A DNA stretch of 63,909 nucleotides, the filler included, from Bigelowiella natans CCMP2755 (taxonomy: Eukaryota; Protista; Cercozoa): the NCBI GenBank assembly GCA_000320545.1. It is 8 parts of 8 records of this genome, joined end to end, with 100 filler letters (N's around TTAATTAATTAA, not from the genome) between each part and the next. Parts side by side here need not be neighbours in the genome. Positions count along the whole stretch, not along the records: positions 45,502 to 53,329 come from ADNK01000581.1; 7 more parts are not named here. One strand, written 5' to 3'. A program made the position numbers and the translations under genes. The notes beneath the pieces are model-generated. The model did not search any database, was not told the DNA's origin, and saw only the letters and a list, made by a program, of their open reading frames with translations. The first letter of the stretch is position 1, and every line of letters starts with the position of its first letter. Positions 11,364 through 51,485 of this stretch are shown in pieces.

Positions 11364-12632
11364 ACTGCCTTTCTTTCTCTTTAACTTCTCGTAGTGTTCG
11401 TTGAGCTGCCTGATCGTCATCCTGGGTCGTCCTTCTTTCCTGTCTCTGCAGTCTTTAGCGGTGTGTTTCCCTTTACGTGAGCAGTATCCGCAACGTCGGT
11501 TACCTTCCCTGTCCTTGTACCAGTCTCGCTGCGGCTTAATAGCGTTAATGTTTCCTATGCCAGGTACCTTAGGGCTGGTAAACTTGCGGTCCTGCTCCTG
11601 CTCGCGTAGGGATATAGCCTGCACTGCTGCCTCCATCGTGGTGTAGCCTTTCTCCGTAACGTAAGTGGATTCCTTTATCTTTAACTTGAACTCTTCAAAC
11701 CTTGCCTGATCATCACCTGTGTTGTAATTAAAATCATGTAGTTCGTCGATCATATCCTGGAAGCGCGTGGCAAAGTCTCTAACAGGTTCTCTCTCATGCT
11801 GCATCATTGCTCTGTATTTTCTAATAGCCTGGGGTAGGGAGTTAGCATCCTGTTCATTTACAAAAGCCTTCATTATCGCCTCAACGTCTCGTAGCCCACT
11901 AACTGTAGTGTGTATTTTCTCTAGCTGCCTGATCCGGGTCCTGCCTGTCTCGTAAAGGTCCATGGCTTGCTTTATTATAGCTAGCCATTTGAGCTTGTCG
12001 TTTTCGGTGGGGTTAGGGGTAAAGTCGCAGAGTATACTCCTAGCGTTCTTCCACCACCTCCTTGCCTCACCTCTTTTCCCGTTGTATTTCGTTATCATAA
12101 CCGGTGCTGTTTTAACAGACATGAACTGGGTGTTCCGCTGTACCGGCTGCTGCTGCTTGACGGTGCTCTGGGTCGTCCCCCGCGAGGCGCCCAGACCCCC
12201 GTCGTTCCTAAACAAAGCTGCCCACTCTGGAGGTAAGTCTGCTTCGTAATCCATGATGTCCTGCATGATAGCTGCCCAAACATCATGTGTCTGATACTTG
12301 TATTCTATCGATACTTTCAGTTTGGCGTAGTTGCTCGCCCTGGGTCGCAAGGCTCGTAATGCCATTACGACCTTCTTGCTTTCGGCGGCCACGTCCTCGT
12401 CGTCCGCCTCGTAGAAGTTCTCCAGTGCCTCTGCTGCCGCCTCGTAGAAGTTCTCCAGTGCCTCTGCTGCTGCATCTGCTTTCTTAATCCCGGGTGCTGG
12501 TCCCGGCGGTGCCTGTGGAGGTGTTCCTCCTCCTTCCTTAGCGTCCGTATCGCCCTTCCTTTCCTGTTTCTGCTCGTGCCCTTGCACGGCCTGCGAGCCA
12601 AAGTCCTGCTGTTCTTCTAGCTGCTGTGACAT
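11364..12632 (-). CDS. gag: Retrotransposon Gag
   Basis: KYNGK...RRWW, a major-homology-like QHEREPVRDFATRF segment, and zinc knuckle CGYCSRKGKHTAKDC (CX2CX5HX4C). AAAEALENFYE is tandemly duplicated (33 bp). Confidence 0.88.
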
Positions 12633-12643
12633 TGTTAGTCAAA

Positions 12644-12666
12644 TCGTTTCCCGTGTGTGGAAGCCA
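12644..12666 (-). promoter_or_regulatory. Primer-binding site
   Basis: TGGCTTCCACACACGGGAAACGA starts 5 nt inside the 5' LTR. It begins with TGG (complement of tRNA CCA) and resembles the complement of a tRNA-Asp/Glu 3' end. Confidence 0.65.
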
Positions 12667-12671
12667 AAGGT

Positions 12672-12997
12672 TGTTGCGCGTAAGGTGTTCACAGGCCGAG
12701 GCGCTACGTGCACAAGTAGGCAGGGGGGGGGAAAGGCACGTTTGCTTCCTTTTGAAGAGTTGTGTTTATTTTTATTAAAGATTATATTTTTATTAAATCG
12801 TGCACTGCGTAATCATTCGCGAAGCTTTCGCGAATGCCGCCGCACGTGGGGCAGCACACTTCCGGTGTGCTGCCATGAGTCCCGCCGGAACCCACGTGCC
12901 TATGCTGTATTAATATCTACGTTATCTATATTCTATATCCGCGACAACCCCTTTGTTGTCGCACGTGACTTGTGCCCGCGTAGTGGTACGCGCTACA
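12672..12997 (-). repeat. 5' LTR (326 bp)
   Basis: TGTAGCGCGTA...TACGCGCAACA, a 10/11 terminal inverted repeat; matches 48233-48558. Confidence 0.95.
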
Positions 12998-13519
12998 TGC
13001 TGTGCGCATGCTAGCATGCTAGCATGGCACCTTCTGGCCTTTGCTAGCTTGCGAGCAGCGCGGGCTTCGAGATGCAGCATTGGTGCGCGAAGTCTGATTG
13101 AAGTTGTGGCACACGTTGCAAGTCGAGTCGATGCATCCACAGATGCAAGTGCTAGAAGTGCCCTGTCGTTTCGCCGTGCGATGCATGCCATTCTAGCATT
13201 TGTGCATGCCAGCTAGAATGCTAGAATGCTGGAATGCTAGAATGGTGCACAGTTGAAGATGTAGACAGTCTGGCTAGCTGGATTCTTCTGGTGTTGCATG
13301 ACGACGCGTAGCAGCATGCTCCATTTTGCGCGGCTCCGATCGTTGCATTTTGTCTATATCTAGTTTATTGTCACAACGTACGCCATGATCACCGATCAGC
13401 GTTTTCAAATTGTTCGCCAACGTGTCTCGACCAGCACACATGCTATGCCCACACACATGACTTCAATCATGTTTATCAATGCTGCTGAGACACTTCATAT
13501 ATCATGGTGCATACATGAA

Positions 13520-15180
13520 TCACGTTATGTTCATTCCCCTTACACCGGGATCGAACCAGGATAGATAATCGTTGCCTCTTCTTCTCCCTCGTGCACTTCG
13601 TCCCTTGAACCTGTTCGCGCGCTGAGCTCCTGCACGTATAATCTTCTCCCTAACCACCTCGTGGCTGTCCATATAGGGGCCGAAGCGAAGCGATGATGAG
13701 GGATCTGCACCAATCTTCATCCTATCAAGAGACTCGCGCACGCTCTCCTGCAAATCAAAGTGTTGGTATGCAGAAACAATAAAAAACTGATAGCTGCAGG
13801 ATGTACTGTACTAGTTGTGCATAGTTCTGCATGTGCTTTACTATCCTTCTTCATACGCATATTGTTTTACGTTCGCTCTGAGCTTAAATGCTTCTGAATC
13901 CTTAAGGTATCTTGAAACCAAACGGGGGGGAGAGAAGGGGGTGATACAACAGTTCAGAATGGCTGTGTCGACAATTAGTCACGGTTCCACTCTCTCTCCC
14001 TAGAATTTACCCTCCATTTTACTACTTTTCGTTGTGTGTGGAGGGGGGTGGGGAAGGGGGGGGGGTTACAACTAACAATTTTGCTGCGTCGGGATTGTGG
14101 CAAAGGTTGAGCTCCTTTCCCTTCCTTAAAGCAACTGCTTTCTTGTCACAATCGTCTTTTTCAGGCCCAGCATTCTCGTCTTCAGTTTTCTTATCGCCAT
14201 CGATCTCCACACCTCCCCCCTCCTCGTCGTCTTCAAGATCGCGCCAGAACTTTTCGTGAAAGTAAAACGCCTGCCACGTTGTGCAGCAATTGTGTGTGTG
14301 CCATGCATCTTTTAATACGTCATGTAACAATTGACGCGTATGCATAGATACGTTTTATATGTGCTCGTGTATATATGATATGACTGTACGGGTTAGTTCC
14401 GGGGTTTCGGAGAGGAGACCCAACCAAAAGTAGCAGTTGTAGTAGTAGTAGTAGCAGCAGCAGCAGCAGTAGTATCACCTCTTTAATATACGTCATCAAT
14501 TTGAGAATATAGCCACCAGCAGGGCCTCCTCCAGAAGTGGGTAACTTCAAGTGTGAAGGAATTACAAAAAAGAAGCATCATCATCGGCACACATGCCACT
14601 ACGGTGCCAATATACTAACACACAATATTAAAATGCGAATCGGCCGATTTCGATTCTCCACCCTCCCCCCCCCCCCCCCGAAATTCAACTGAACAATTCT
14701 TAGCTTGGAAATACGTGTTCTATATTGTTGTTTTTCTCCTGCGTATCCTCCTCCTCATCCTTCTCCTCACCATCAGCATCATCATCATTATAATGATTAG
14801 TTTGAATCTTAACAACACGCACATTGGCCGGTTTGAGATCGAGCTGCCGGGACTTTGGGGAGATGAGCGGATGGAATATGTTTATGTCGAATACAACTTT
14901 CGGTTCTCCTTCAGTTGGATACCTTAAATAGGCAGAATCCAAGATTATATTCGCACGTAATCAGTCGCATAAAACTCTTCAAGCGAGACGTATTCGTCGA
15001 AAGGCTTTGACAAAAAGTTGTTTTTGGGTGTTCAGGAACGAATTGTAACAGTCAACAGAAGCAGGGAAGGGGAACGTAGCGCCGAGGTATTTTATGTTTG
15101 CTTGTTTGGTATCATGTTTGGTATCAATGCATTTATCGTTTATTAGCGCCATTAAAACTATTTCTCTCCTCCCCCCCTCC

Positions 15181-18970: not shown

Positions 18971-20362
18971 CTTTGTCATCTCAGATTCGGTGTCATGTGC
19001 TGATGCCCTGGCAGGAAGACCACCTCGAGAACGTGTATATAATCCGACACGCATGGCTGTCCCTGAATTTTAGACTCTACCCGATATCTGGGAGCCACCT
19101 TCTGATACGTACTTACACAACAAGACGCATCAAAAAGTCTCATTTCCTCAGATCAGTGCTGCGTAATTCGACAAACGATAAGACTCGAGTAATGAGCTAC
19201 CTTGTATCCCACAACACGCCTCTCCCGGATTTCCTTACCCACTTGCCCATTTTGGAGTAAAGCCCGTCCACAACGACATAATTCAAGATTTTTTTCAGCC
19301 GAATCGACAGCATCTTATGCAGCTTTGTCTTCTGATCAGCACTAAGGTCGCTTGCACGGGGAACGCGAAATGTAGCGTAGTCATTGAGGACTCCAAGGTA
19401 TCCGTCGCAGAAATTTCTGAGGAGAAACAATGAGAATGAGTCTAGTAGTGCTTAGGGCAGAGTAAAGATAGCAACAATAGTAAGGACTCCACCCCACTCC
19501 ACCCCACTCCATCCCAACGTTTGTCGCACAGGGTTGACTCTATTCGGGTCTTTCGGTCCGGTCCGACGTTTCTCCAGACAAATTGAGGAGGCGGGGGAAC
19601 AGGGCGCGGTGGAACTATTTTACCAGCAAATCTTCTCAGTATATATCTCAACTACATGCAAATTGGAATCTTTCAGAGCTTCGAAGGTCCGTCATCATTC
19701 AGGATTTGAAAATATCGACTGCTCTTCTTACTTTCTAAATTGTGGGCTGTGTGTACATAGCCAAAGGAATTAGATCAAGCTACACTCTGTTACCTTTTAT
19801 ATTGACACGTCTTTCTTTTCCGCTATAAGTCACCTTCCCCTTGAAGGTAGACTCCAACAAATCGCGCTCAACCGTGATTCTAGACGTCCCATCTTCCATT
19901 TCTTCCGTTTTAGATTTCCCACGTTGATAGTTGAAGGTCACCGTCCCGCGCTCATCAGAACACACCTCACCACAGACACAGCGAGCCTCAATATTCACAT
20001 TAAGTAAACGTTTACCGTCCTGACTAAGGTCGAGCTGTTCGGGATCCACATGCAGCTTCGTGAACGAATGTTCTACCCTCAGCTTCAGTTTGTTAGATGA
20101 GTCGAAGAATATCTCGTAATCTCCCGGGTTAAGACGTTTCATGTCTACCTTGAGCTTCCCTTTTACTACTTCTAAAGTTTGTTTATTGCTGCCCTCTCTC
20201 ATCAGTTTTGCACTTTTCTTTGCGATTGGTTTTAATTGATTTTCGTATTTGTCTTCTAACGTGAGCTGTTTTGTTCGGGTACCAGCTGATGCAAAGACGT
20301 AAATACGGTACTTGTCAATGCATACGTTATCGCATAGAAGGGAGAGATGAGAGAAAGAAAGA

Positions 20363-20412
<50 letters not shown>

Positions 20413-23400
20413 CACAGAAAATACAAATTTTGCAAAAGTAGGGGTTATTGCTAAAACAACTCTGCTCTGTGAAACCTATGTGCATGCTCTCCATACGATA
20501 ATCTCTCTTCTTTTCTCAAAACTGGAAAGCATATACACCAGCGTAGCTTAGATTTTTAAAAATGAGTGTTGTGACCACTGCAATTCCAAGAGATTTTATC
20601 ATCATCAATTTTCCACTTAAAGGGATCTCCCCGTTCCAAATTGATCTCCTTTTCGTGCGAAAAAGGCTCAACCCCATCAAAGTTGGCTTCGACTCTTACA
20701 AGGTATTTGTCATCTTTAAGATCTCCTGGTATTTTCTTTGGTATTTGAAGATTGTACGAGTAGTCTTGCTTCAGGTCGATTTTCTTCCCGTTTATGTACA
20801 CAGTAAGCCTCCCATCGTTCATCTGATCGTCCTGTGAACGTCGACGTTTTCTCCTTCGAACGAGTTCGTGTTTAATGTTGCTGTCCTTGTAAACTACAAA
20901 TTGAATCTTTTTAGGGTCTTCCCCAACCTTAACCTTGTCCGGCGCTTTTATTTCGAGGTATACGGGCTCGTTGTGCGCTTTCACGTTCATGCGGAACTCT
21001 GACTTCTTCTTACCCCACTTCAATTCCACCCTCGCGCGTAACTATGTAATCACAAGAAGAAGAATCAATATGCAATCTCAAGTCAGATTGGTATATCATC
21101 AATAGATTAGTATTGTGAATGTCAGCATTGTTCTCTTGCTGCATTCGCATTGAGTCAACAAGTTACCTTGCCCGTTTTCTCCTTCTTGTCGTCCAAGAAA
21201 TATTCTTCGCCTAGCTCTAGATGGGTTTCTTCAACTATACCAAGCCGTCCATTTTCTCTCTCCAAGGTCTTGGGTGCTTCAAAAATGTTTTTCCACTCGC
21301 CTTTTGATTTAACTTTCATCATGACCGTCACCTTCTCGTCTGGTAACTCCGTGGTAGTGTAACCATATTTATCGCAAAATTTGCCTTGCGCAATAACATC
21401 GTTGATGAAAGTTTCAATATTAGTACTGTCGCTCTTGTCAAGAAGCTTGTACGTGTTCCGAATCGCTTTGATATCGTCTGGGGGGATCCATTTGTCCGGA
21501 ACTCCGGGACTTATCTTAAATCGAAATGATGAGCCTTCTTCCAGGGAAGAGTGAGAAACGGTTGCCTCTATTTCATCCTCCCAATCCTTCGAAAGTTCTC
21601 CGTTCCCTTTATCTTTGGGAGAAATCTTGAGGATTTCGAAGCAAAACCTATATTGATCCTCTCGCGAACGCGAAAGCTTCGAAGTTTTAATCTTTAATCC
21701 GGCGTCCTTTTCAGTCTTTACAGATATGATTTCCGAAAAGATCTGTTTGAAAAGGGATTGAAAGCAAAAAAGTGAGAAGGATGAATTGGTTTTTCCAGCT
21801 AAATTCCTTTCGCAGTTGAAGCCCTTAAAAGGCGAAAGTCAAGTCATGCAAAAGCAGAAAAAGAGGCCAAACACCAAACATTTGACCTCGAAACATTTGA
21901 CCTCGAAATTCATGTCCTTAAAAAAGATACGATTGCCACGTATGTCCTGAACCTCGAATTCAAATCTGCTCCATTCAGGGTTACTTCCTAGACGAGCTTC
22001 GAGGTCGTCGTCGAATTCCACGAGCACTATTTTATAAGGGTCTCCAGGCTCCACTGTGAAATGTGCTTCGTATAGAAGCGGTTTCCAGGGTTTCTCATGT
22101 ACTTCTTTGTCCACGAAAAACTGAGCTGTGTGCGGCCCTGGGTCCAACTCTTTGAGATTCAGAGAATAACCTTTGCTTGGATATGAAAAATTGCGTAAAA
22201 ACTTCTTGTCGTTCCAGAGTTTGAAGTCTACTCTTTTTGAAGCGATTTCTTTGCCGTCTACGCCTATAACCTTTGGCTTTATGCTTGTGAAGACTCCCTT
22301 ATCGCTTCCAATCTTCCACGTTTTTTTCTCTCTGCAACGACGACAACGATCGAACGGTTCCCAAGAAAAAGATTCTGATTTTGGGTCGTCTGCCTTCTCT
22401 ACTTTTTCCAGTTCTGGGTCTACTTTTGTATCGATACCTTCGAACTTAATACCATCAGGCCAGAATTTTTTTTTTTTTAATCTTTGAATAAGTTTTGGAA
22501 CTTTTTCCGGATCTATCTTGGTTTTAATCTTAAAAAAAGGAACAGAGGTCTTTTCTTGCCTTACATCGTATCTTTCAGGTTTCGGCAAGAGAATCACATT
22601 GACATCAACTTGTGACGCCAAATATTGTCGATCTTTTTTGATTAAATGTTCAGATTTCACAACTACATGTGTGATTTCACCCTTCCTTCCCTTGTTAAAA
22701 GAGACGCAGTCGCCTTTTTTGAAATCGCTCACCTTTTTCTTTTCGCTAAGTTTGGTAGCTTTGTTGAAGGAGTATTCCTCCTTATCTGGCCCCAGATTTT
22801 GAAAAGGGAGGGATATCTGCATATCACACCTACTGCTTACCAATTGGATGAAGTCTTTTATTTTGCTTTGAAGGGTACTGCGTGTAGATCTAGGCTTATC
22901 TAAATCTTTTTCTTTTTCGATTTTTCTTCCGGTCTTTGTGTTGGACAACATCTCTGGTATCGTCTGATCCCTGATCTTTCCTAAATTGAGTTTGTTCCGA
23001 TGTGGCCTGAAGTCCTCCCCAGTAAAGAGGATGAACTGAAGTCGATCTTTTTTCAGCGGTTCTACCTGTCTTGGCCAGAAATGGGAAATACTCTTAGCAC
23101 TACAGGGTGCATTAATGAGCCTGCGTCCTTGCCAGTGCCATTCCACAGCCGGAAGGCTCCTGCCGCTAAAATCTTCCACAGTCAAACCTTCTAAAATTTC
23201 CCCACCAGTCCCATTATCTCTGAGCCATTTTTTGACTAGAGCAGGCGAACTCGGAAATTCATCATCTTCAGAGAACTCTTTGCTTTCGAATTCGACATTG
23301 CAGTCCCCTCCAACACCCTTTTCCTTAACGCATATCCATTTCTTCACACGCTTTCTCCCGGTGTTTTCCTTGCGAATCTTAATCTTCACACTCTCGTCGT

Positions 23401-23788
23401 TGACATTGATATATACACTATCCAGATGATTCTCAGGCTGATGATTTTCATGCTCACCCTCACTCTCAGTCTCTTCGTCTTCAATCTTATTTTCCTCGTC
23501 GTCTCTACCAGCATTATTGCCTCGATCGTTTAAGCGCTGTTCATTCTCATCAGAACGAAGTTTATAATACCCTTCAAACGGCCTCAAATCCGGTTCATCT
23601 TTAGCAGTCACATTCAAGCCTTCCGTAACGTAACTAGGATCCATCTCTTTCCCGTTTTTAAATGGAAGATATAGTGCCATACCCAAGATTTGTTTACCGT
23701 CCAATTCAAATTGAAAATACATTTCCCCAGCCGATCGCTCGTGGCAAAGCCAAAGATGGGACTTCTCATTTCTTAAGCTGTTTTATAC

Positions 23789-23826
<38 letters not shown>

Positions 23827-26272
23827 TGATTAGGAATAGCGTCATTGACGAAATGAATGGGTTTTACTACTACCTGTGGGATTTTTTGTTTAGATCGATA
23901 ACTTCAATGTCGAAGTCTTTAAATTTCCATGTTTCTATATCGAAGAAGCAGTTGTTGGGATACTTATCGATATCATCTTCGGGTTTTTCATCGGGCAGGA
24001 ACTTTTTCATATGTTTTTCGTTATTGGCATGCAGATAGTAATGGTATGTGTTCGCAAGCTGCCGACAAAGTTGAGGGATGTAATTCTGCAGGTATTTCTG
24101 GAGATTTGGCTTAATGTCGTAGAGAACTACTCTTGTAAATTCCTTTTCAATCTTTTCCTCTTCGAGTAACTCCTTTGCGAGCTCAGATTCCCAATACTCC
24201 TTGTAGCAAGGGTCTATTATGTCAAATTTTACCGTTTCTTCCTTGCCGGCTTGGCGCTTGATTTGCCCCAGTTCCATTCTTTGGTCATTTTTACTTTGCC
24301 TCAATCTAATGAGATCGTCAGAGCAGCTCACACATGTCACCTGATATATCATGAAGTACAAGTTTGGACCTACTACTCACAATAACTTGAAACCAATCTC
24401 CAAATCCCATGCTATTATATCCGCTTGATTGACCTCGTTGTTGCCTCTAATTCTGGAATCTACAATTCCTCCCCTCGCCACCAAAAAAATCGCATCTTTT
24501 GCCCCTTCTCCGAAGTAGTTCAATCTTCCATCGACAAAGAAAAATGATCGAGTGCCTACAGAAAGATTGTGTTCGATTAGCTCGAAAAAACACGGATTCA
24601 AATTAAAATTTCACTTCACTTATGTCGCTTTTGCTTCTTGCGCCCTTGTCTTTCTGACTATATCTTAGCATCCAGTATAGTCGAAGCTGATCTGCACTCA
24701 TTCCTGCACCGATGTTAATTATGGAAGCAGAGTACATATATCTTCCTTGCGCCTCACTGTAGTGCCTGTGAAAGCGGATTTTAATGCTAGCTTTCTCACT
24801 TTTGCTTTCAAGAGTGGGTCTTATAGCGTTGTCGATCAGTTCCATAAATGCAATGAGAAGTTTCTGAAAATCTAGAACATCATCGTAGCGCGACTGGCGA
24901 TAAATAGATACTCCAGTAGAAACGTTGATTGTTGATTGAGACATTTCATTCTGTATCGCATTGCTTCCACTTTGGTTTCTTACCCATGAACGAGCTTCAG
25001 GGTAGGCTTCAATTTTCTCTCCGTCTCTAAGATGGTCGTAGGTTTCTCGAGTAAGTTCGAGTCCCTTGTATTCCAGGGTTATAAGGGGTCGTGAATCGAG
25101 ATTTACATCCCAATGACCGCCGATCCAATTTCGCATGTCGTCGTAATTCATATAATTGGTCCGACATCTCGAAACCTTGCCATCCTTGATTTTCCCGCAC
25201 CAATTAATGCAGATTTCGTGCGAACGAGCAGTTAATTTGCTATATTGACTGATTTCCTCCCGAGAATCAACCCTTTCCCCATTGTTGAATAAGTCAATAC
25301 GAGCGTACCGTTGATGTAATCGTTGATGTAATCCGAGCCTTCTAGATTTCTTGATCCTAGATTTCTTGATCCATTCAAGCACTTTTTCCTTCATTTTGTT
25401 GAGAGAATCAATCAGAAATTTCTCTTTAATCTTATGTTTATCCTCAAATTGAAATTCAACGGTCACGAGGTTGCTTCCGGTGGTTTCTCGTAGCATGTCG
25501 AACTTGCCTTCTACTTCTTTCCAGTCAATTATGCTGAAATCGTGACACTCATGAACTGCTTTAAAGAAGTGTCTTTTTTGCTTATCATCTAAGAAGTGTC
25601 TTTTTTTATTATTATATTTCTTTCTAATAAATTCTTCAAACTTCTTTAAGTCGTTTTCCATCTTTTCCTTTACTTCATGGATTGGCAATACCTATTCAAA
25701 ACATAGGCAGGTTCGACACTGTTATTAAATACTTTTTCAAAAAGTCACTCCACCACTAGATGAAAAAAAACTTGACTTATTTGGTGAGGTATGTTAACGC
25801 TTACAATGGTGTTAATTTGCTCAAGATGTTCCTCCTTCAGTGTGTTCTGTACCATCCATGCTTTCAGTACCCTCCAGATATAGTAGATTATAATTGAGTC
25901 TTCCATCGTGAAATACTTTATTTCCGATCTCACACGAGGAACCATGAAATATGCAATGGAAGGGGCTAGCTCCCGATAATGAGCGGGACGCTCACTAAAG
26001 AATTTTGGCTGGACGCGTTTGTATTGCAGGACGCACTGAGTCAATTTATCAATATCTATACTTCCTTGTTGTTTCACGATGAATGATGATGCAGGTTCTA
26101 AAATCCTTACAACATCTTCGACGAATTTTTTTTTATTCTCCCCTTCAGGGACCGCCTCACATATTTGCAAAATACATTTTGCTCCATAATGTTTTTCTAG
26201 GAACCGGAATTCTTGAGGCACTTCGGACTTCGACCCGGATGAGTCCGAGGCATGCTTCGATGGGCGGCTCAT
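18171..26272 (-). CDS. SMCHD1: SMCHD1-like protein (UBL, GHKL ATPase, transducer, Ig-like linker, SMC hinge), multi-exon, about 2000 aa
   Basis: AFMELIDNAI; SIINIGAGMSADQL; LNYFGEGAKDAIF; FTRVVLYDIKP...QNYIPQLCRQLANTYHYYLH; EWHWQGRRLI...DRLQFILFTGEDFRPHRNKL; repeated PGxP motifs in the linker; hinge GYLGVLNDYA...LNYVVVD and NLKEAETIRK...PTIWTYNGIDELRAGG. All are in SMCHD1 order. Confidence 0.85.
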
Positions 26273-26437
26273 TAATTAAACTGAAGTTTCGAACCCTTCC
26301 AGCAGAACCAAGCCTGGATTAAATTTTATGAGTCTTGGGGCCGGCGTGAAGCTGTACTCGAACGTGGACTTCCTTAGCCTTTACTAGCCCTGAGAGAGTT
26401 CGCCAACGACCACCCTTTGGGGCATCCACGCAGAGCA

Positions 26438-28220: not shown

Positions 28221-30179
28221 GTAAGATTCTCCAGTTAGTCGAATAATATAGTAGGTGTGAACTATCTAGATGTGTGCTGCTTATTTAACGTTAGTGCTGA
28301 ATTATAAATTATGAGATTAATGTCGCACATCCAGCTCTAGACACAGCGGCATTCGGTCATCACAGTGATCAAAGCGTGGAACACATGCTGCTTGAACGCA
28401 ACCTCTAGAAATGTCAACACTGTTATTGAAATTCCGAAACACCCCATAGTAGGCTTCAATAAATTACATGTAGTTTTCTTGATCGGTGGCACTATGCACC
28501 GCATTCAGTTCTAGAAATGTTGTCGCTCGTTATTGGCATCAATGCTGGCATGTTAGACGGATGCGATGAAGATGCCATACTTTTTCACTAGTAACCCTAG
28601 CTAATGTAGCTCTAGAGCTATGCAAGAATGTGTCTGATCTAGCTAGCTATGGGTGTGCACGTCGAACGCAACGCTGCGCATACAGGTCGAGCAGATATCA
28701 TCATGCTCGCCAACGCGCATGCAGGCCTTGCATTTACCGCAATGATCTATGTTACGCAAACCATCACTTATTGGCGGTGCAGCTGGCATGTAGCTGCGTC
28801 GTAGGAGTTATGCATGCTTACCTACCTCGCGACGGAGCACCTAGCTGTCGTTCGATCGAACATGATATATAATACGCTGTGCGCGACGCGTTATTGCATG
28901 ATGCGCGCGCGCCACATCACCCGGAGCCACGCCGAGCGGCTACCGCTAGCTAGCATGCGATGCTAATTAAGCAAAGGCACCATGCTAGCATGTATCACTC
29001 TAGCTGCACGTGGGGTTTTCCCCATTTTTTTCTCAAGTTCTATATAAAGCGCTAACAAACGAGTAGTCAAAGAAAGGCAGCGGCATCATTTTGCGCATAC
29101 ATCGATGCTATGACAAATAACTCATGAATCCTTGAGGCGGTCGTATTTTGGTGTTACACATAGCACATAGAGAATGAATCAAAGCAACAACGACGATGCA
29201 ATGCATACACACAACCACGACATAACAATCGAAGCAAAAGCGGCAGCTGCTACAAGTCTAGAAATCAAGACTGCACACGACGATGCTAGCTAGCTATGCT
29301 GCGAGGTAAGACGCCTGCATGTAGCGAACAGGAGCGTTTTTGCATGATCTACCATACTGGCCGAGGTGCTTCGGTGTGTGTGTGTGTGTGCGTGTGTGTT
29401 TACTTTTTTAATTGGCAGATACTGTTTCGACACAGCGAGCGCAGAGGACAATAATACCGCAGAAGAACATGCTCAATTCATTAATAATGATTATAGAAAT
29501 AAAACTTGAATATTAGCACGACGCGGAGGCGTAGTGAAATGCTATAAAATGTGAAATTACGAACAGAGCCAAATCCTTCATTGAATAGCATGTATGAGAA
29601 AAAATGCGACTCGTATCACTTTACATACATATTCTTCACGCTTATGTTGTGAATACAAAATATGTTTTTATATTTAATGTTGAAAACAGGCGCGTTGCAT
29701 TTCTCACATATTTAAACATAGCATTTTAAGGGCTTCATCATTCTCCTAACGAACATAGCTGTCAGATCAGATGCCCCTCTTAAGTATCTTCTCTCGCCCT
29801 CCTGCTTCCCTCCGCACTGTGCCAGCACCAATTTTATCCGCGCCATATCCAAGAATTACATAATAGAGCAGTTAACATTGCAGGCCGGATCCTAGAGTGT
29901 GAGGCGGTGGGGGGGAGGAAGGGGGGGAGGAGGGTATCATAACGATGATGAATGGTAGGATCATCCCTAGAATGTCGTGTTCAGGTTAATAAGAAAGTCA
30001 ACGAAGATAACCCACATACACACACAGTCATTCCATGTGGCAGTGCATTCGCACGACTCCTCCTCCACCCCCCCCCCCCNNNNNNNNNNNNNNNNNNNNN
30101 NNNNNNNNNNNNNNNNNNNNNNNTTAATTAATTAANNNNNNNNNNNNNNNNNNNNNNNNNNNNNNNNNNNNNNNNNNNN

Positions 30180-30213
30180 CCTAAACCCTAACCCTAACCC
30201 TAACCCTAACCCT
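30180..30213 (+). repeat. Telomeric (CCCTAA)n tract at a contig start
   Basis: About five CCCTAA units abut the gap, followed by degenerate units (CCCTCA, CCCTGA, CCCCAA). Confidence 0.8.
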
Positions 30214-31563
30214 GGTCCTGACTTGTGCTGATCCTGGTGCTCACCTCATCCCTCACCCCAACTCTGGTCCAAACTCTTCACCAGAAACGGTGACTCTGAC
30301 CCTCATCCCAGCCCTGACCCAATGCCCTCACCACTTTCCGTGACTTTGGCCCTCACTTTTGCCCTGAGAAAAGCCCTGGTCGATTTTGGCGACCAGTTTT
30401 CCTCACTTTGGCCCTCACTTCGACCGTCACCATGGTCGTCACTTTGGTCGTGGCCCAGGAGAACACCCTGACCCCACATGGCCATGTGAACATTGTCAAA
30501 CTTTGGACATTTGCCTTTTCATTGTCCACCTTTGTGACTGTTTTTTGTCACCCTGGGAATTGTCATTTTGTGTTCACACACACATTCACACAATTGCGTG
30601 TCGCAGGGCAGGCGCAGTGGCGCACAGGCTGGCAGGGCTGGTCAAAGATGACTCTCAGTGGAGAGTTTGAACTCTGATTGCTGCATGATCAAATTTTTGT
30701 CAGAAATCACTGGCACAAGTGTCGCACCAATCCAACGGCCAACCTTGGGGTTCGAGAATGCTTCCAGAACCATCGGGAAGACTGAGGCAGGTGCCAACTG
30801 CGTGACGTGGGTTGGGTTCCGACTGGATTCCGATGTGTCAGGTTCTGTCATTTGTTTGAGGAAGGAAGGCCTGCTTCGAGGTGATCGGCCTCGACAGGAC
30901 AGCCACAGCGAGCGTGCAAAAGAGTTTGGACAGGTTTTTGCTGGTTGTTTGCGTGCTGTGCGTGCCCTTTGCACACTGGCACATCAAGTTGTCCACATGA
31001 TGATTGATGCTCACGGCCGTTGACTGCACTGCGTTGGCAGTGCACAAGAGAAAATGCACACGTGCCTTCTGGTCTGTCTCAACGTCATCGCTGTCCATGC
31101 ATTGTTGAATGATGTCCGCATCACGTGAAAAATGTCACGCATGCCGCCAGCGTCAAGCATCGTGTCACATGTGAAACTGCGTTTTGGGCTGTGTCTGCAG
31201 TTGGCGTTAGGAACACCACACCAGTGATGTGCAAACAAGATTGCAGCATGTTTCGTCATTAACTTCAAAAAATCATCTCTTGCCAATAAGGCTGATGTCA
31301 TCATTATTCACTTGGATGGTGTTGGGCGTAGGCTCACTATCTCAGCAGCTTTCTCAATGTACTTAGCCTTCAACAATCCTGCATGTTGTGTGTCACACAA
31401 AGTAAGGAATAGTGAATTAAATCATTCATCAAAGGTCGTAAAAGGACAATTAGGCGCTTCTGCTGGCCTTTGTTGATAATCGTTATATTTCTCTACAAGC
31501 TCAACATGAATGAGAATCTTCCTCTCCACACATCATAGTTCTTCTATAGTAGCGATAGTCGTT

Positions 31564-45501: not shown

Positions 45502-48181
45502 CCATGGAACGTGAGACATGTGCTAGCTTAAGAAACCTACTTACCCTTTCTTCCGCCTGGCGCACAACTTCATCCGCCACAACCGAGTAATAAAGAGGAT
45601 CCAGACACCTACACCAAGGATAGATGACGTTATTGAACACGTCATAGGATACAAATACTACTCTTCCCTAGATAAAAATGAATCATACATGCAGACACCC
45701 ATCCACAAAACCTCCCGCCCCATTACCGCGTTCTCCAGCAGGCACAGGAAGTGGCACTTCGTCGTATTCCCTTACGGCCTAAGCATATCAGGGGATGCGT
45801 TCAGTAGTCAGAACTACAGGGCATACACACATGATGGGATGGCGTCTGTGTTGTGGGTGTTTGTGTTTGTGTATGTGGATGATGACATAATATGTACCAA
45901 CACAGTCGTCGCTCAGATCTTCCTCCTGGAAAATATATTTATTAGGTTTGCACACTTCGGTTTTACTATTAGACTGCAGAAGTGTACATTCCTAGCTACA
46001 AGAATCAAGTGGTGTGGATATTACCTGGAGCAAGGCCGCATCACCCCAAACCCCGAGAAAGTAGCAGCACTACAGCAAGCCCCTAAACCTAAGAATGCAA
46101 AGGAGTTAAAGTCATTCTTGCAGACTGCAGCTTGGATACTACGTAGGTTCTCCCCTACCTACGCTAGGACTGCAGCTGCTTTTACTACTGCTTACCGGAA
46201 GGAGAACTCTGTAGGCCTCAGCTTCGCTAAGGTGTGGGCCAAGGCTGGCCTTGATGCCCACTTCGATAACCTAATAAAGTTATGCAGCAACACCCTATTG
46301 AATGCTAAGCTAGACACTACTAGACCAGCTACCCTATGGACAGACTGGTCTAAGCTAGGTATGGCTGCTGTACTTACCCAAGACCAGCAGATCATACGGG
46401 TGTGGGGCAGGGCCTGCACAGCAGCTGAGGCCAAGTACAGCCCTACAAAAGGAGAGTATAAAGCCATGACTGAGGCGCAGAGGAAACTAAGATACTACCT
46501 GCTGTCGGTGCCCAGCTTCACCTTAATGACTGACCACAAGCCCCTCCTAGGCATCGACCGCAAGCTCGAAGCGCCTAACGATGAGTATGCAGCTATGAGG
46601 GCGGACACGGAAGAGTTTAGGGACAAGAGGACAGTGGTCTACGCACCAGGAGACAAGCAGCTTGCTGACTATTTCAGCAGGCTGTTCGAAAAGAAAGTCC
46701 CTACCCAGGTCACCCCTATGGTTAACGCGATTACCTTCGAGGACGGCGACTTCCTGCCTGAGCCAGAGGAGCTCCAGCACCTTCAAGAACACCTGGATAA
46801 ATACAAACACAAGCATGAGGTACTTAGTGATAGGATATATGTATACACTAATAATGTTAGGCGTACCTACGTGCCACGGCGGACCAGGGGAGCCCTTCTC
46901 TTTACCGCCCATGGACCTGCACACGTAGGAGAAAACCATATCACTGCTCTACTCTACCATTACTACTGGCCCTACAAGCTAAAAGAGATAAGGACATACC
47001 TGCGTGGCTGCAGGTGCTCCAGCTTGAAGGCGGCAGGCGTCGCCACCAAGGAGTCCAGCAAGAGCCGTGCATCTAAGAAAATCAAAGCAAGGAACTTCTT
47101 AGATATCGTGCAAATTGATGTTTATAAGTACGATGGCTATCACTACCTTACCTTCGTTGATGTGGCCACTGGAAAGTGCTGGGTTAAAAAGATTATCAAG
47201 GTCAACGTTGCTAAGAAGAACAAAGGCTTATATAAGCAGAGGCTTACTAACTGCTACCGTACCTGGGAGTCTGAGCTCCAGGCTATCCCTGATGAAGTTA
47301 GCATAAACAAGATACCAAAGAAGTTACATGTGGATAATGAGACCTCTCTTCTACAGCTACCACACCCTAATATTGATGCCTCACCTGTATACTATGCCCA
47401 GTCCAACTCCAAGGTAGAGCGACTCCACCGCACCTTGGCCAACCTAAGCAGGATAAATAGCACCACACCAGACAAGATACAAGGGTTAGTAAACGACACC
47501 TTCACGTCTGGGGGAGGTATCAAGGATAAGGAGAGGGAAGAAGGCGACGACAACGACGACGATACCGAGAGCGAAGACGAGAAGGTCCCGTACGATGGCC
47601 GAGTTCTAAAGGAAGGACAGTATGTTAGGGCCAAGGTAAATCTGAGATCGAGAAATAAACAAGACCCCTTCTGGGGTGGCGTTGCAAAGGTTACCGAGAG
47701 GAAGGGGAGGAAGCAGTACTACATCTATGATGGGAACAGGGTCACCTTGCGCCACATCAGTCACCTAAAGAATTATGATATCGGTGAGAAGCTCCTAGAG
47801 GATGTTAAAGTAAACCCTACTGTGTGGGAGCGAGCAATGCCTTGTTTAGGACCCCGACCTAAGTTCGATGTGGAATATGGAAACAATAAGGTCAGGGTGA
47901 ACGACGATTGGCGCATGAAGATTGTCTATCTAGGCTACCCTGGATTACGAAATATGGAGAGGGTAGCTATGAAAATAAAGGACGGAAAATATCAGCTACT
48001 CTACCTAGCTGTTCCCGACTTACCCTTTGAGCACTGGTATAAGGTCCTGGGGGACCTTGATGCAGAGGGCTGGTATGGACACGAACCTAAGGACGAAGGT
48101 GAGTTCTGGGTAAGCGACAAAGGAGATAAGGTTAGAGAGGAATCTATTACCTGGTGGTTGGTGAAGTTCCGAAAGCGATGA
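45502..48181 (+). CDS. pol: Pol polyprotein: RT, RNase H, integrase, SH3-like module and an extra C-terminal Dam-methylase-like domain
   Basis: TPRIDD...YYSSLD, PYGL, YVDD (RT); LWTDWSKLGMAAVL...TDHKPL (RNase H); HGPAH...CRC, IVQID, HVDNE, SNSKVERLHRTL (integrase); DPFWGG. The frame extends upstream of 45689, with an apparent +1 nt near 45529 close to the contig edge. Confidence 0.93.
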
Positions 48182-48232
48182 AGGTCTAAGGGAATAAGGA
48201 AGGAAGGAAGGAGCAACGTGACTTGGGGGAGG

Positions 48233-48558
48233 TGTAGCGCGTACCACTACGCGGGCACAAGTCACGTGCGACAACAAAGGGGTTGTCGCGGATATAGAAT
48301 ATAGATAACGTAGATATTAATACAGCATAGGCACGTGGGTTCCGGCGGGACTCATGGCAGCACACCGGAAGTGTGCTGCCCCACGTGCGGCGGCATTCGC
48401 GAAAGCTTCGCGAATGATTACGCAGTGCACGATTTAATAAAAATATAATCTTTAATAAAAATAAACACAACTCTTCAAAAGGAAGCAAACGTGCCTTTCC
48501 CCCCCCCTGCCTACTTGTGCACGTAGCGCCTCGGCCTGTGAACACCTTACGCGCAACA
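48233..48558 (+). repeat. 3' LTR (326 bp)
   Basis: TGTAGCGCGTA...TACGCGCAACA; reverse complement of 12672-12997. Confidence 0.95.
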
Positions 48559-49556
48559 ACGCTGGCACCCAGGGCACGTCTCCAAAGTGTTGCACGACAC
48601 TTGCAACTTGCGAAAAGCAGTCCAATGGTGCCTCGAACTGGAAACAACGAGGATTCACTGGGGTGGAAAGCATGACAAGCAGCATGACAAAAAATGGCGT
48701 GCATGGCCAATGGCAGCCGTCTGATGAGGGTGGGGAAAAGAACGACGCAGCGCATCCATCCTGAACCAGAAACTTCCCCGAATTTCGATCGCGCGACATC
48801 CATCATCTCCATGGATCTCCATGGATCTCCATCTCATTGAATCTCTGCAACTGTGTCGAAGACGAACTGAATTTCACTTGGTGCGACAAGCCGTAGTGAC
48901 CGTTCGATGCGGTGACTGTCATTGACAAACAGTGCTCCTGGTCCATTTTTGGCGTAGTTGACTGTGGAGCACGCTCGGATGATTGATGAGTTCTTGGGAG
49001 GTACTACACGTAGTCATTACAGGAGTACATGCAGCAGCCATTAGTGCACATGCTGAAAGGAACAATTGGTTCACAGTGTTCTGCAAGTTCACAAAAAATA
49101 AGAGAAAGAACAACAACGTAGAAGCACAACTCTTCACGGAAAGAAGAGCACGTGCGGTACCCACCACTGCACGTATCGGCCAGCGCGACATACGACTGAG
49201 TTGTCCAGTGTCCAAAATAGTTCCATTTGCATGCAATTCTGGCTTGTGTTCGAGCTAGCTTCAACGTGCTATTTTTCCTACTCACTTGCCATCGAAGAAG
49301 TGTTCGGTGAAGAACAAGGACAAAAGCAGGGGAACGCCAAGCTTTTTGAGCTCTTTTAGAGATATCTACAATCAAAAGGAGGCCTATAAGCGCTCAACCT
49401 CGCGTCAAAGTTCCACTGGGAGCAAGTGAAAAGCAGCAGGCAGGCAAGAGGGCGGTCCGAGAGCAAGTGCGTAGGCACGGTGATAAGAAACCAAACCACG
49501 AAACTTCCCCCAAAACCACTCGTTATCCTCCCCCTTTCGCTCTCCCCATTTTCTCA

Positions 49557-50965
49557 ATGAGAGCATCAAATTCGCCAAGAATTCCTTGTAATAACGCAGA
49601 CGACATTACTATGAGAGTGAGGTTTAAATACGAAAACCAGAGCATGAAGGACAAGGAAAGAGCGGAGGATGGTAACATCTGGCACGAATTTGACTTTCCG
49701 GATGGGCCTGAGTGTGAAGAAACAAGCATATTTTGGAACGTTGATCCCCTTCTCAACAAACCTAGTGAGACTGGCAGTGTTGAACCTCCAGGAATGGCGA
49801 ATGACAGCTCTCCTACCTCCTCCCTTCCCACCCGTGATTTTGACAAGATAACCCTGGAAGAGACAGAAACCTGCATATCACGACATTTCCGTTTCCATCC
49901 TGAAAAACTACTAAATGATGAATCACATGATCATATTTCACCTAATCACTTGTCACCTTTATATGCGAAAGAAGAGGAGAAAATAGAAGTGGACCTTGAC
50001 AATAATCCCAGCATCATTCACCATCCTGTTCGCTGCGAGGGTGGAGAGCAGCAAGCAAGTGTAAGCCAAATACGCAGGCATCTGCAAACAGATGACCCAG
50101 AGTCTCACTTGCTGGAAGGCACTGTCGCTGAGTATACCCGTGGAAAAAGTGAAAAAAAGGAGGAACTGAGATGGTCGTATACGGACTATCGATCTCGAGA
50201 TTATAATTTTAATAACGATGGTGGTGACAACATCAGGAGCAAGATATCATCAAGCGATACTACTAGTGCAACTATAGAATTACGTACCCCTCCTTCTTCG
50301 TCCCGTATTCCCTCTTCCCCGAAGCGAAAATTACTTGCTGAAGAATCTTGCTCGAAAAATCTGCCTAGCGACCAAAATATGGACTCGCCAAAGAAAAAGC
50401 GCAGAAATTGCAGTGTTGAGTTGATAGCAGAGATTTCCCCTTTCTCTTCGACTATAGCCCTTCCTGTAGTTTCACGCGGAAGCTGCCGCAAGCCTAAGTC
50501 GAACTCTGCTGCATTTCGAGCAAAGGTATCATTAGCTAATTCAACCGCGAGTGGAACTACAAAGAGGATAGCAGTAGTAGTATCACGATCATCCTTCTGC
50601 GATGTCGTGAAAAGAGAAGAACAGAAATTACATTTTATTGGCAAAAATGAAGCAGCAATACTTCACCCAGTGCGCAAGATGTCTTATCGTCCGTCGTCAT
50701 TTTCGCCGAAGAAATGCAACAGGCTAAGTTTGAGAGAAGCAGATGAAGAATGTGGCTTGAAGTTGACTGCTTCCTTCTCCTCCTCGCCTCGGTTACCGCC
50801 AAAGCAGAATCAACTTGAATGCTGGCCCAAGACCTCAAATGCCAACAATTGGGAGCTTTCCAAGTAAGAAATTGCGAAACAAATGTGTAGAGTTTAGATA
50901 TATTAAGATGGCAATAGTCTTCTCCAAACTTCGGCCTCATCACTGAAAGTGCAAAAGCTTATAGC

Positions 50966-51014
<49 letters not shown>

Positions 51015-51485
51015 GTCAGATTTCGTCGGCGTAGCCAACGGCGTGTAGCCCAAGCTGCTAGAGAGAAAGTGCGTAAAATACTGTGCTCAGAAGATGACAA
51101 ACTCGAGAAATTTCCTTCGGACGAGGAGGAAAATGAATTTTTGGGTGATGAAACTATTTCCATAGATTCAACTTCTAGCAACGTCTCGTCGCTTGTTTTA
51201 GCACGCAAAAAACCCTCAGTGAACAACTTTGGATTCATCGTTCTCACGAAGGAAACGCTAAGAAAGAAGGGGATCGTACGAGGGGGATTTGGCCGAGCCT
51301 TTGAGTGCCAATATTGCCATAAGGTCTGTACGCAGAGGAGTAACATAATCGCACATGTGCGTGTTCATACTGGTGAAAAGCCATTTAAATGTGTCAAATG
51401 CTACAAAGCATTTTCACAAAAAAGCAATTTAAAGCGTCATATCAAGACTCATAATTTGCTCTATAGAGAGTTGTACAATCACTAG
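49557..51485 (+). CDS. C2H2 zinc-finger transcription factor, two exons
   Basis: Long low-complexity exon 1; intron ~50863-51019 joins in frame; FECQYCHKVCTQRSNIIAHVRVH-TGEKPF-KCVKCYKAFSQKSNLKRHIKTH. Confidence 0.85.

Follow-up and report, generated by a model that had tools for sequence, protein, structure and literature searches.

A conserved, predicted Dam-like pseudo-enzyme domain at the integrase end of a Ty3/Gypsy retrotransposon of Bigelowiella natans

Organization of the retrotransposon

The sequence analysed here, referred to as the window, is a stretch of 63,909 nucleotides (nt) made of eight parts of the genome of Bigelowiella natans CCMP2755 (GCA_000320545.1) joined end to end with filler. 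It contains, on separate contigs, parts of two copies of a Ty3/Gypsy retrotransposon whose integrase ends in a domain with the predicted fold of the Dam-type N6-adenine methyltransferases. The pol frame of the first copy (ADNK01000581.1) spans 45527-48181 on the plus strand, is 884 residues long from stop to stop, and encodes a reverse transcriptase (RT), a ribonuclease H (RNase H), the integrase, an SH3-like module and the Dam-like domain. The middle of the element lies outside the window, since this frame begins 25 nt from the contig edge.

The RT (45599-46024, Pfam RVT_1 E 1.2e-8) carries YVDD at residue 116 and is followed by an RNase H of the Ty3/Gypsy type (46259-46561; RT_RNaseH E 1.1e-14, RT_RNaseH_2 E 1.4e-10). 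The integrase (46871-47476; Integrase_H2C2 E 0.0013) combines an HHCC zinc finger with a DDE core, whose residues D531, D603 and E631 are kept in 21, 22 and 22 of 22 aligned relatives, and the family profile matched the integrases of foamy virus (PFV, E 5e-8) and Ty3-G (E 2.3e-7). TAL-effector rows in the family-profile search were rejected as summed 5-7-bit repeat matches to an integrase helix and not homology. The SH3-like C-terminal module of the integrase (47603-47794) was recognized in the relatives (Integrase_p58_C best E 6.5e-6, SH3_Tf2-1 E 0.003); the Pfam scan gave no match for the window's own copy. In agreement with the original prediction, made from the DNA alone, the Gypsy integrase frame continues past this module, and its last 127 residues form the Dam-like domain (47798-48181; coding 47798-48178, stop codon 48179-48181). 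The words DVEY (47867) and GYPG (47933-47944) were found as described, the latter replacing the catalytic motif.

A polypurine tract (48225-48232, plus strand) directly precedes the 3' long terminal repeat (LTR; 48233-48558, 326 nt, TG...CA), which is 100% identical to the 5' LTR of the second copy, located at 12672-12997 on the minus strand of another contig. Five nt after that LTR stands a TGG stretch resembling a primer-binding site, and then comes the gag of this family (11364-12638, minus strand; Retrotrans_gag E 0.048), cut by the contig edge. Two separate insertions are likely because the 5-nt flanks of the two LTRs, on their different contigs, are not the same. Gag is joined to the integrase of this family within the gene models P0012 (gag, protease and integrase) and P0021, and the relatives P0059, P0093 and P0104 have the order protease-RT-RNase H-integrase. 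With its TG...CA LTRs and polypurine tract, its gene order and its DDE integrase, the element is a Ty3/Gypsy LTR retrotransposon. When the last 140 residues were searched, all 17 proteins returned were B. natans gene models (jgi/Bigna1), 99-100% identical, and two clusters among them have 22 and 25 members; the family is therefore young and multi-copy.

The same two bases follow the terminal CA of the LTR in the internal sequence (12670-12671), in the 3' flank in the window (48559-48560) and, apparently, in the flank of a wild variant (metagenome locus L014, ~339-342); the LTR may extend 2 nt beyond this CA. Base 45528, near the contig edge, is missing in three sequencing runs, and a 33-nt gag duplication (12404-12436) is missing in three runs and in P0012. 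Each is either a copy-specific difference or an assembly error.

The Dam-like domain

Relatives were collected with a profile of the integrase core, the SH3-like module and the tail, for which the window sequence was combined with that of P0022, a second family of Bigelowiella that is 42% identical to it. Of the 1.84 billion representatives searched, 79 were returned at E<=1e-3, and the Dam-like domain was present in 63 of these 79, a count that is partly circular, the counting profile having been built from 50 rows of which 49 are among the 79. Integrase or SH3-like sequence was found upstream of the domain in 36 of the 63, and in all 36 proteins with such visible context the domain is the last integrase module; 25 others are fragments that start at the domain or at most 45 residues before it. 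Ten residues or fewer follow the domain in 54 of the 63. No Chromo match was found in the window protein or in 50 aligned family members, and the frame ends with the Dam-like domain, which stands, as had been proposed, in the place of a chromodomain.

The named sources among 30 relatives looked up were two chlorarachniophytes, B. natans and Amorphochlora amoebiformis, and one MMETSP transcript. The labels 'Nitrospirales' (P0028) and 'Bacteroidota' (P0033) of two metagenome-assembled genomes were set aside as likely binning carry-over. Scans for the DNA of relatives yielded one locus in metagenomes, L014, which ends inside the domain and has no flank there, and none in the viral and prokaryote contigs scanned. 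L014 (1-5282) is a related element with an LTR and a gag-pol frame of 1434 codons, after which a stop precedes the remaining integrase in the same frame; its rho TpA is low (0.38) although tyrosine codons are present. Another relative, P0097 (366 residues), has a weak upstream match to the Mom adenine-modification family (E 0.0004, below the cut-off).

As a single sequence, the 127-residue domain had no match in Pfam, NCBIfam or PHROGs. Among PDB sequences no methyltransferase was found, with collagenase rows only at E 0.4-1.9, tblastn against phage gave a best E of 0.8, and the ESM Atlas gave no usable match. The reference set consisted of 13 collected T1-type Dam proteins of phages, which we take to belong to Pfam Dam (PF05869). 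A hidden Markov model (HMM) of these proteins scored the window domain (P0002) at -2.6 bits, equalled by 732 of 1000 shuffles, and the P0022 domain at 3.0 bits, reached by 22 of 1000; the score of a two-sequence profile against phage Dam was reached by 29/200 and 86/200 shuffles, and the fold predicted from two sequences was weak (pLDDT 62). The by-eye methylase alignment of the original prediction was not confirmed at this depth, and a family profile was needed.

The 50-row family profile aligned to the profile of the 13 phage Dam proteins over 86 columns (E 5e-4 to 9e-4) with a score of 27.3, which none of 100 column shuffles reached (maximum 19.5). An AlphaFold2 model made on the same alignment had a pLDDT of 96.9 and a pTM of 0.89. 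Compared with predicted viral structures (BFVD), the model had 11 matches at E<=1e-3 (TMq 0.57-0.69): five named N6-adenine methyltransferase, one named methyltransferase and five unnamed or uncharacterised, the six informative names all being from phage. The Foldseek match list against the PDB was almost entirely made of S-adenosylmethionine (SAM)-dependent methyltransferases, PCIF1/CAPAM having the best TMq (0.57-0.60), and VIA-align also placed PCIF1 first (Z 6.9, root-mean-square deviation 3.9, 117 aligned), with KsgA, ErmC' and others within 1 Z. A fold search without any methyltransferase similarity, the outcome that was to sink the original prediction, did not occur.

Two results count against this assignment: neither the single sequences nor the two-sequence profile could beat shuffles against phage Dam, and no PDB match attained Foldseek E<=1e-3 or Z>=8. 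A convergent resemblance, the domain being a small alpha/beta unit unrelated to Dam, would suit the lack of any Pfam, NCBIfam, PHROG or PDB sequence match for the window domain, the match to Pfam Dam in just one of 50 family members (E 0.032), and the low hhalign probability (24-31% with the 50-row alignment; 6%, E 0.006, with a 20-row alignment). We nevertheless consider convergence highly improbable, because the sequence profile and two structure libraries independently gave the same N6-adenine methyltransferase group with the motifs in register. The family profile, the AlphaFold2 model and the BFVD and PDB matches agree with the fold originally proposed, and the modelled domain almost certainly belongs to the Dam/N6-adenine methyltransferase fold.

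In N6-adenine methyltransferases, motif I serves to bind the cofactor and motif IV to bind the target adenine. The suggested survey for copies with an intact NPPF yielded none: [NDS]PP[FYW] was found in 0/63 domains, and Asn-Pro-Pro in 0/50 alignment rows. The family consensus is G[YF]PG (G46 in 37/45 rows, Y or F in 29/45, P48 in 36/40, G49 in 36/46). The Asn and the aromatic residue of motif IV, which hold the target adenine in active enzymes, are precisely those replaced by Gly; Asn is kept at the first position in a few members (P0037, P0116). The motif-I Asp is 32-49 residues from motif IV in 13/13 phage Dam proteins (32-35 in 11 of them) versus 21-24 in the 22 family rows having both D and G, which leaves the cofactor-binding segment about 11-12 residues short. 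The residue spacing, which had been said to fit throughout, thus fails against phage Dam, the set with which it was compared here. The register of the Asp is uncertain, as hhalign places the phage motif I in a gap; given the two distances, either register implies that the cofactor-binding segment has lost a part.

Other positions of the domain are strongly kept. P73 (49/50), W80 (46/47), W92 (44/46) and W119 (41/45) are near-invariant, and C77 (35/47), W104 (38/47), D24 (28/42), N29 (27/44) and the pair W92-x-G94 are also conserved. Mean identity to 11 close relatives is 31% in the domain, 40% in the core and SH3-like module and 25% in the linker. Pairwise identities in the domain and in the integrase are correlated (rho 0.61 over 21 proteins, 0/5000 permutations; rho 0.53 over the 11 closest proteins, 1/5000), as expected from long co-inheritance. 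The description of the domain as a degenerate Dam is right in that the catalytic motif is gone and understates the rest, since the whole family has G[YF]PG as its consensus and the domain, besides being conserved, co-varies with the integrase. Judged by the criteria for an active N6-adenine methyltransferase, the predicted fold is there, while motif IV and an intact SAM segment are missing. Ordinary methylase activity has very probably been lost, and the domain reads as a conserved pseudo-enzyme and not as a decayed enzyme.

Two other views of this conservation were considered. The domain could still be an enzyme of changed chemistry, with another cofactor geometry or substrate, and its strong family-specific conservation (C77, W92-x-G94, W104, D24, N29) and the Asn retained in P0037 and P0116 would suit such an enzyme. 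This is quite unlikely, as the domain has lost motif IV together with a piece of the cofactor segment, and even canonical retroelement Dam domains were without activity in E. coli (bioRxiv 10.64898/2026.05.21.726589). It could also be a neutral relic, a functionless passenger, consistent with a domain identity below that of the integrase core and with a motif lost still further in the more distant elements P0059, P0066, P0069 and P0076. We give this already disfavoured view very little credence: the domain has remained nearly full length, with its near-invariant residues, across proteins less than 50% identical to one another.

TpA erosion, possible role and transcripts

Hypermutation of TpA to TpG/CpA in B. 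natans has, in the accessible text of the preprint by Mettrop et al. (bioRxiv 10.64898/2026.01.13.699255), been measured on integrated viruses and only suggested for transposons; the 1-kb cut-offs given there are a rho TpA <=0.43 and CpA+TpG >=1.52. The host flank 3' of the LTR (48559-48893) is CpA/TpG-rich and without TpA (0 TA in 329 nt); over 500 nt its rho TpA is 0.28, a value equalled by 1.5% of 528 overlapping windows. The host flank of the second copy (12998-13300) is also CpA/TpG-rich, and 9 of its first 10 TA, over the first 303 nt, lie within CTAG; at 12998-13497, rho TpA is 0.58 (18.6% of windows as low) and CpA+TpG is 1.67 (top 1.3%). The claim that both insertions sit in TpA-eroded DNA therefore stands firmly for the 3' flank and only in part for the second. 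A 30-nt flank of the wild variant has TpA only in CTAG and is too short to weigh. The copies in the window are themselves uneroded and TpA-rich (rho TpA 1.14 in pol and 1.16 in the LTR versus a window median of 0.74), and the flanks were probably eroded before insertion, because the adjoining LTRs are intact.

The residual TpA of 12998-13300 lies inside short GCTAGC/GCATGC-rich repeats, where either CTAG is spared by editing or the motifs are intergenic repeats; the second alternative is considered because these motifs occur without erosion at 28500-29350. At 30180-31314, a contig end with telomere-type CCCTAA repeats is followed by about 1.1 kb in which hardly any TpA is left (rho 0.06, CpA+TpG 1.71), a subtelomeric block with complete erosion.

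Erosion was also seen in members of the clade. P0022 has no tyrosine in 1243 residues and P0029 none in 670. P0035, a copy of the window's family, shows 18 differences from the window over 114 residues, 16 of them explained by TpA changes, and has lost 7/7 tyrosines; 17 of its 26 susceptible codons were changed versus 1 of 88 other codons. Among relatives from metagenomes, P0064, P0071, P0053 and P0070 have Tyr-to-Cys/His/Arg changes at conserved sites, which suggests TpA editing in other hosts of the clade. The tyrosine content of gene-model stretches outside the element, taken as a stand-in for flank erosion, gave no clear signal either way, since the models skip the immediate flank.

As for a role, we tentatively favour, with somewhat less than even confidence, the reading that the dead Dam fold has been retained to tether the integration complex to DNA, without enzymatic action. 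A Gypsy element would have captured a Dam-type methyltransferase fold at the integrase end, after the SH3-like module, and the captured fold would then have lost catalysis. The dead fold may bind nucleic acid and tether the integration complex as chromodomains do in other Gypsy elements, and insertion would be biased toward non-genic, TpA-poor DNA in a gene-dense genome. This reading builds on the observed position of the domain, its family, the motif loss, the conservation and the co-variation with the integrase, together with the predicted fold. Both flanks (2/2) are CpA/TpG-rich and TpA-poor while the adjoining LTRs are not.

Several points weigh against the tether. At 1 kb, the flanks have rho TpA and CpA+TpG of 0.41/1.32 and 0.72/1.41, and neither reaches both preprint cut-offs. 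In four gene models the element is fused to ordinary coding sequence of the host (1.1-3.5% Tyr). As evidence of the integration targeting or modified-base reading originally proposed, the flanks are suggestive at most: there are two of them, one is modest, and the exclusion of CTAG was post hoc; insertions that merely survive in the junk DNA of a gene-dense genome would look identical. In the remaining two of the 63 relatives (P0094, P0097), the domain lies behind unrelated, non-integrase sequence. The location of Dam domains elsewhere in other elements, between RT and integrase or apart from the DIRS recombinase, suggests an older job outside integration.

A rival explanation is that the dead fold binds the element's own RNA or complementary DNA (cDNA) in the particle, where it would help to package it, to reverse-transcribe it or to protect the intermediate, and that it has no part in site choice. 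Iyer et al. (PMC4738411), in the text accessible, suggest that the inactive DIRS1 domains bind the template or mimic PCIF1, the preprint 10.64898/2026.05.21.726589 reports other positions in Pol and suggests action on RNA-DNA intermediates, and the closest solved fold is that of a methyltransferase acting on the RNA cap. Wherever context is visible (36/36), the last integrase module is this domain, and we find the explanation rather doubtful. Another explanation is that the domain reads or counters the host's A-to-G editing at TpA, by recognising edited or marked DNA or by shielding the cDNA from a deaminase. The hypermutation does strike this clade (P0035, P0022, P0029), the active family is TpA-rich (pol rho 1.14 versus the 0.74 median) and uneroded beside eroded flanks, and an adenine-handling fold is a natural candidate. 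A shield, if any, does not last, because eroded copies of this family exist; the adenine-holding residues of motif IV are replaced by Gly, and youth alone accounts for the uneroded state (gene models 97-100% identical). This explanation is improbable. Hardly better placed, and still distinctly unlikely, is the combined proposal that a clade in chlorarachniophytes and relatives turned a phage-type methylase into an editing reader or shield that steers integration into edited junk DNA; if true, this would be the first case of an integrase with a targeting module of methyltransferase fold, and it would offer a way into the TpA editing machinery.

The pol region is also covered by antisense RNA. 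Contigs of two marine metatranscriptomes showed 14 RNA joints across pol, of which 13 are antisense GT-AG introns of 56-165 nt (45609-48150, minus strand), four of them common to both studies; one joint with 17 unexplained letters was left out of the set, and the joints come from separate contigs. Four further introns are antisense to gag (11460-12118, plus strand), and a probable 329-nt antisense intron (48186-48514) is entered from the host flank. A search for an antisense protein gave a longest open stretch of 135 residues after all 13 introns were spliced out, and the transcript is therefore likely an antisense or read-through RNA without coding function. Among the papers listed in a literature search, none dealt with such a case. 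Fourteen runs (X1-X14, guessed to be DNA, with 13 coded organism labels) contain 45502-48560 and 11364-12997 at 0.99-1.00 of words; some must be RNA, because X7 shows spliced joints. In X1, X3 and X5 the element forms one 5420-nt contig without host flank, which closes on itself in X5. A very abundant repeat or transcript may have been carried over into these runs, or the element may have spread horizontally.

The 3' LTR has a C2H2 zinc-finger gene region (49350-51485, plus strand) as its downstream neighbour, at a distance of about 800 nt, and the other LTR lies about 540 nt from a host gene that is transcribed and spliced (13540-14200, minus strand). A multi-exon host gene at 19780-26275 (minus strand), with weak matches to GHKL ATPase (E 0.03) and to the S5-like domain of SMCHD1 (E 7e-6), possibly encodes an SMCHD1/MORC-like chromatin protein.

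Comparison with known systems

The capture of a Dam domain by a Gypsy element, as first proposed here from the DNA, is supported and is not new: Dam-type domains in Pol of Ty3/Gypsy elements (DAM-LTR) were reported by Fernandez-Moreno et al. in May 2026 (bioRxiv 10.64898/2026.05.21.726589). The accessible part of that preprint describes five lineages (chlorophyte, chlorophyte-ochrophyte, ichthyosporean, Pyropia and Euglena) and a domain located between RT and integrase. Bigelowiella, Rhizaria, chlorarachniophytes and Cercozoa are absent from its main text, and its supplements may list them. Like those domains, ours is a Dam-type domain in a Gypsy Pol, with a small beta-sheet, one N-terminal helix and several C-terminal helices; theirs conserve Asn-Pro-Pro and were detected by HMM at E<1e-5, whereas this family has G[YF]PG, 11-12 residues fewer and a best Pfam E of 0.032. 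The family is DAM-LTR-like in architecture and lacks the catalytic triplet: it is a cryptic, integrase-terminal pseudo-Dam lineage.

In DIRS1 elements, methyltransferase-like domains of the PCIF1 clade were described in 2016 as likely inactive (Iyer et al., PMC4738411, as far as the text is accessible), and the accessible text of de Mendoza 2018 mentions Dam in DIRS only. Both DIRS1 and this family have a PCIF1-like N6A-methyltransferase fold in a retroelement polyprotein, PCIF1 being also the best PDB match of the window model; DIRS uses a tyrosine recombinase from which the domain is separate, whereas here the domain ends a DDE integrase. The T1-type Dam proteins of phages share the predicted fold and the order of motifs, but are stand-alone enzymes, and their invariant D...NPP...R-x-x-F is reduced in this family. 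Chromoviruses carry a chromodomain at the C-terminus of the Gypsy integrase (PMC5408687; bioRxiv 10.64898/2026.05.21.726589, both in their accessible parts), an accessory module for chromatin or DNA contact to which the putative module found here is comparable in position; no chromodomain was found in this element or in the relatives scanned. The hypermutation described by Mettrop et al. leaves a signature that is also seen here, both in the flanks and in the clade's eroded copies, although their work, in its accessible text, concerns integrated viruses and not this domain. In a literature search that did not reach most subscription papers or Repbase, no account of Dam-like domains in the retrotransposons of chlorarachniophytes came up, nor any paper on N6-methyladenine (6mA) in Bigelowiella.

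What is new is thus a lineage missed by Pfam, in chlorarachniophytes, with a motif of its own and a host with TpA hypermutation. Compared with the DAM-LTR survey, it indicates that Gypsy elements have captured Dam domains more widely than HMM screens reveal, and that a conserved pseudo-enzyme lineage, fixed at the integrase end, is present in at least two chlorarachniophyte genera and in many marine or other assemblies. Edited and unedited copies of one family show directly, at the protein level, that LTR retrotransposons are hit by the TpA hypermutation of B. natans. With a cultured alga, a young multi-copy family and mappable insertions, this element offers a clean case for asking what the dead Dam domains of retroelements do.

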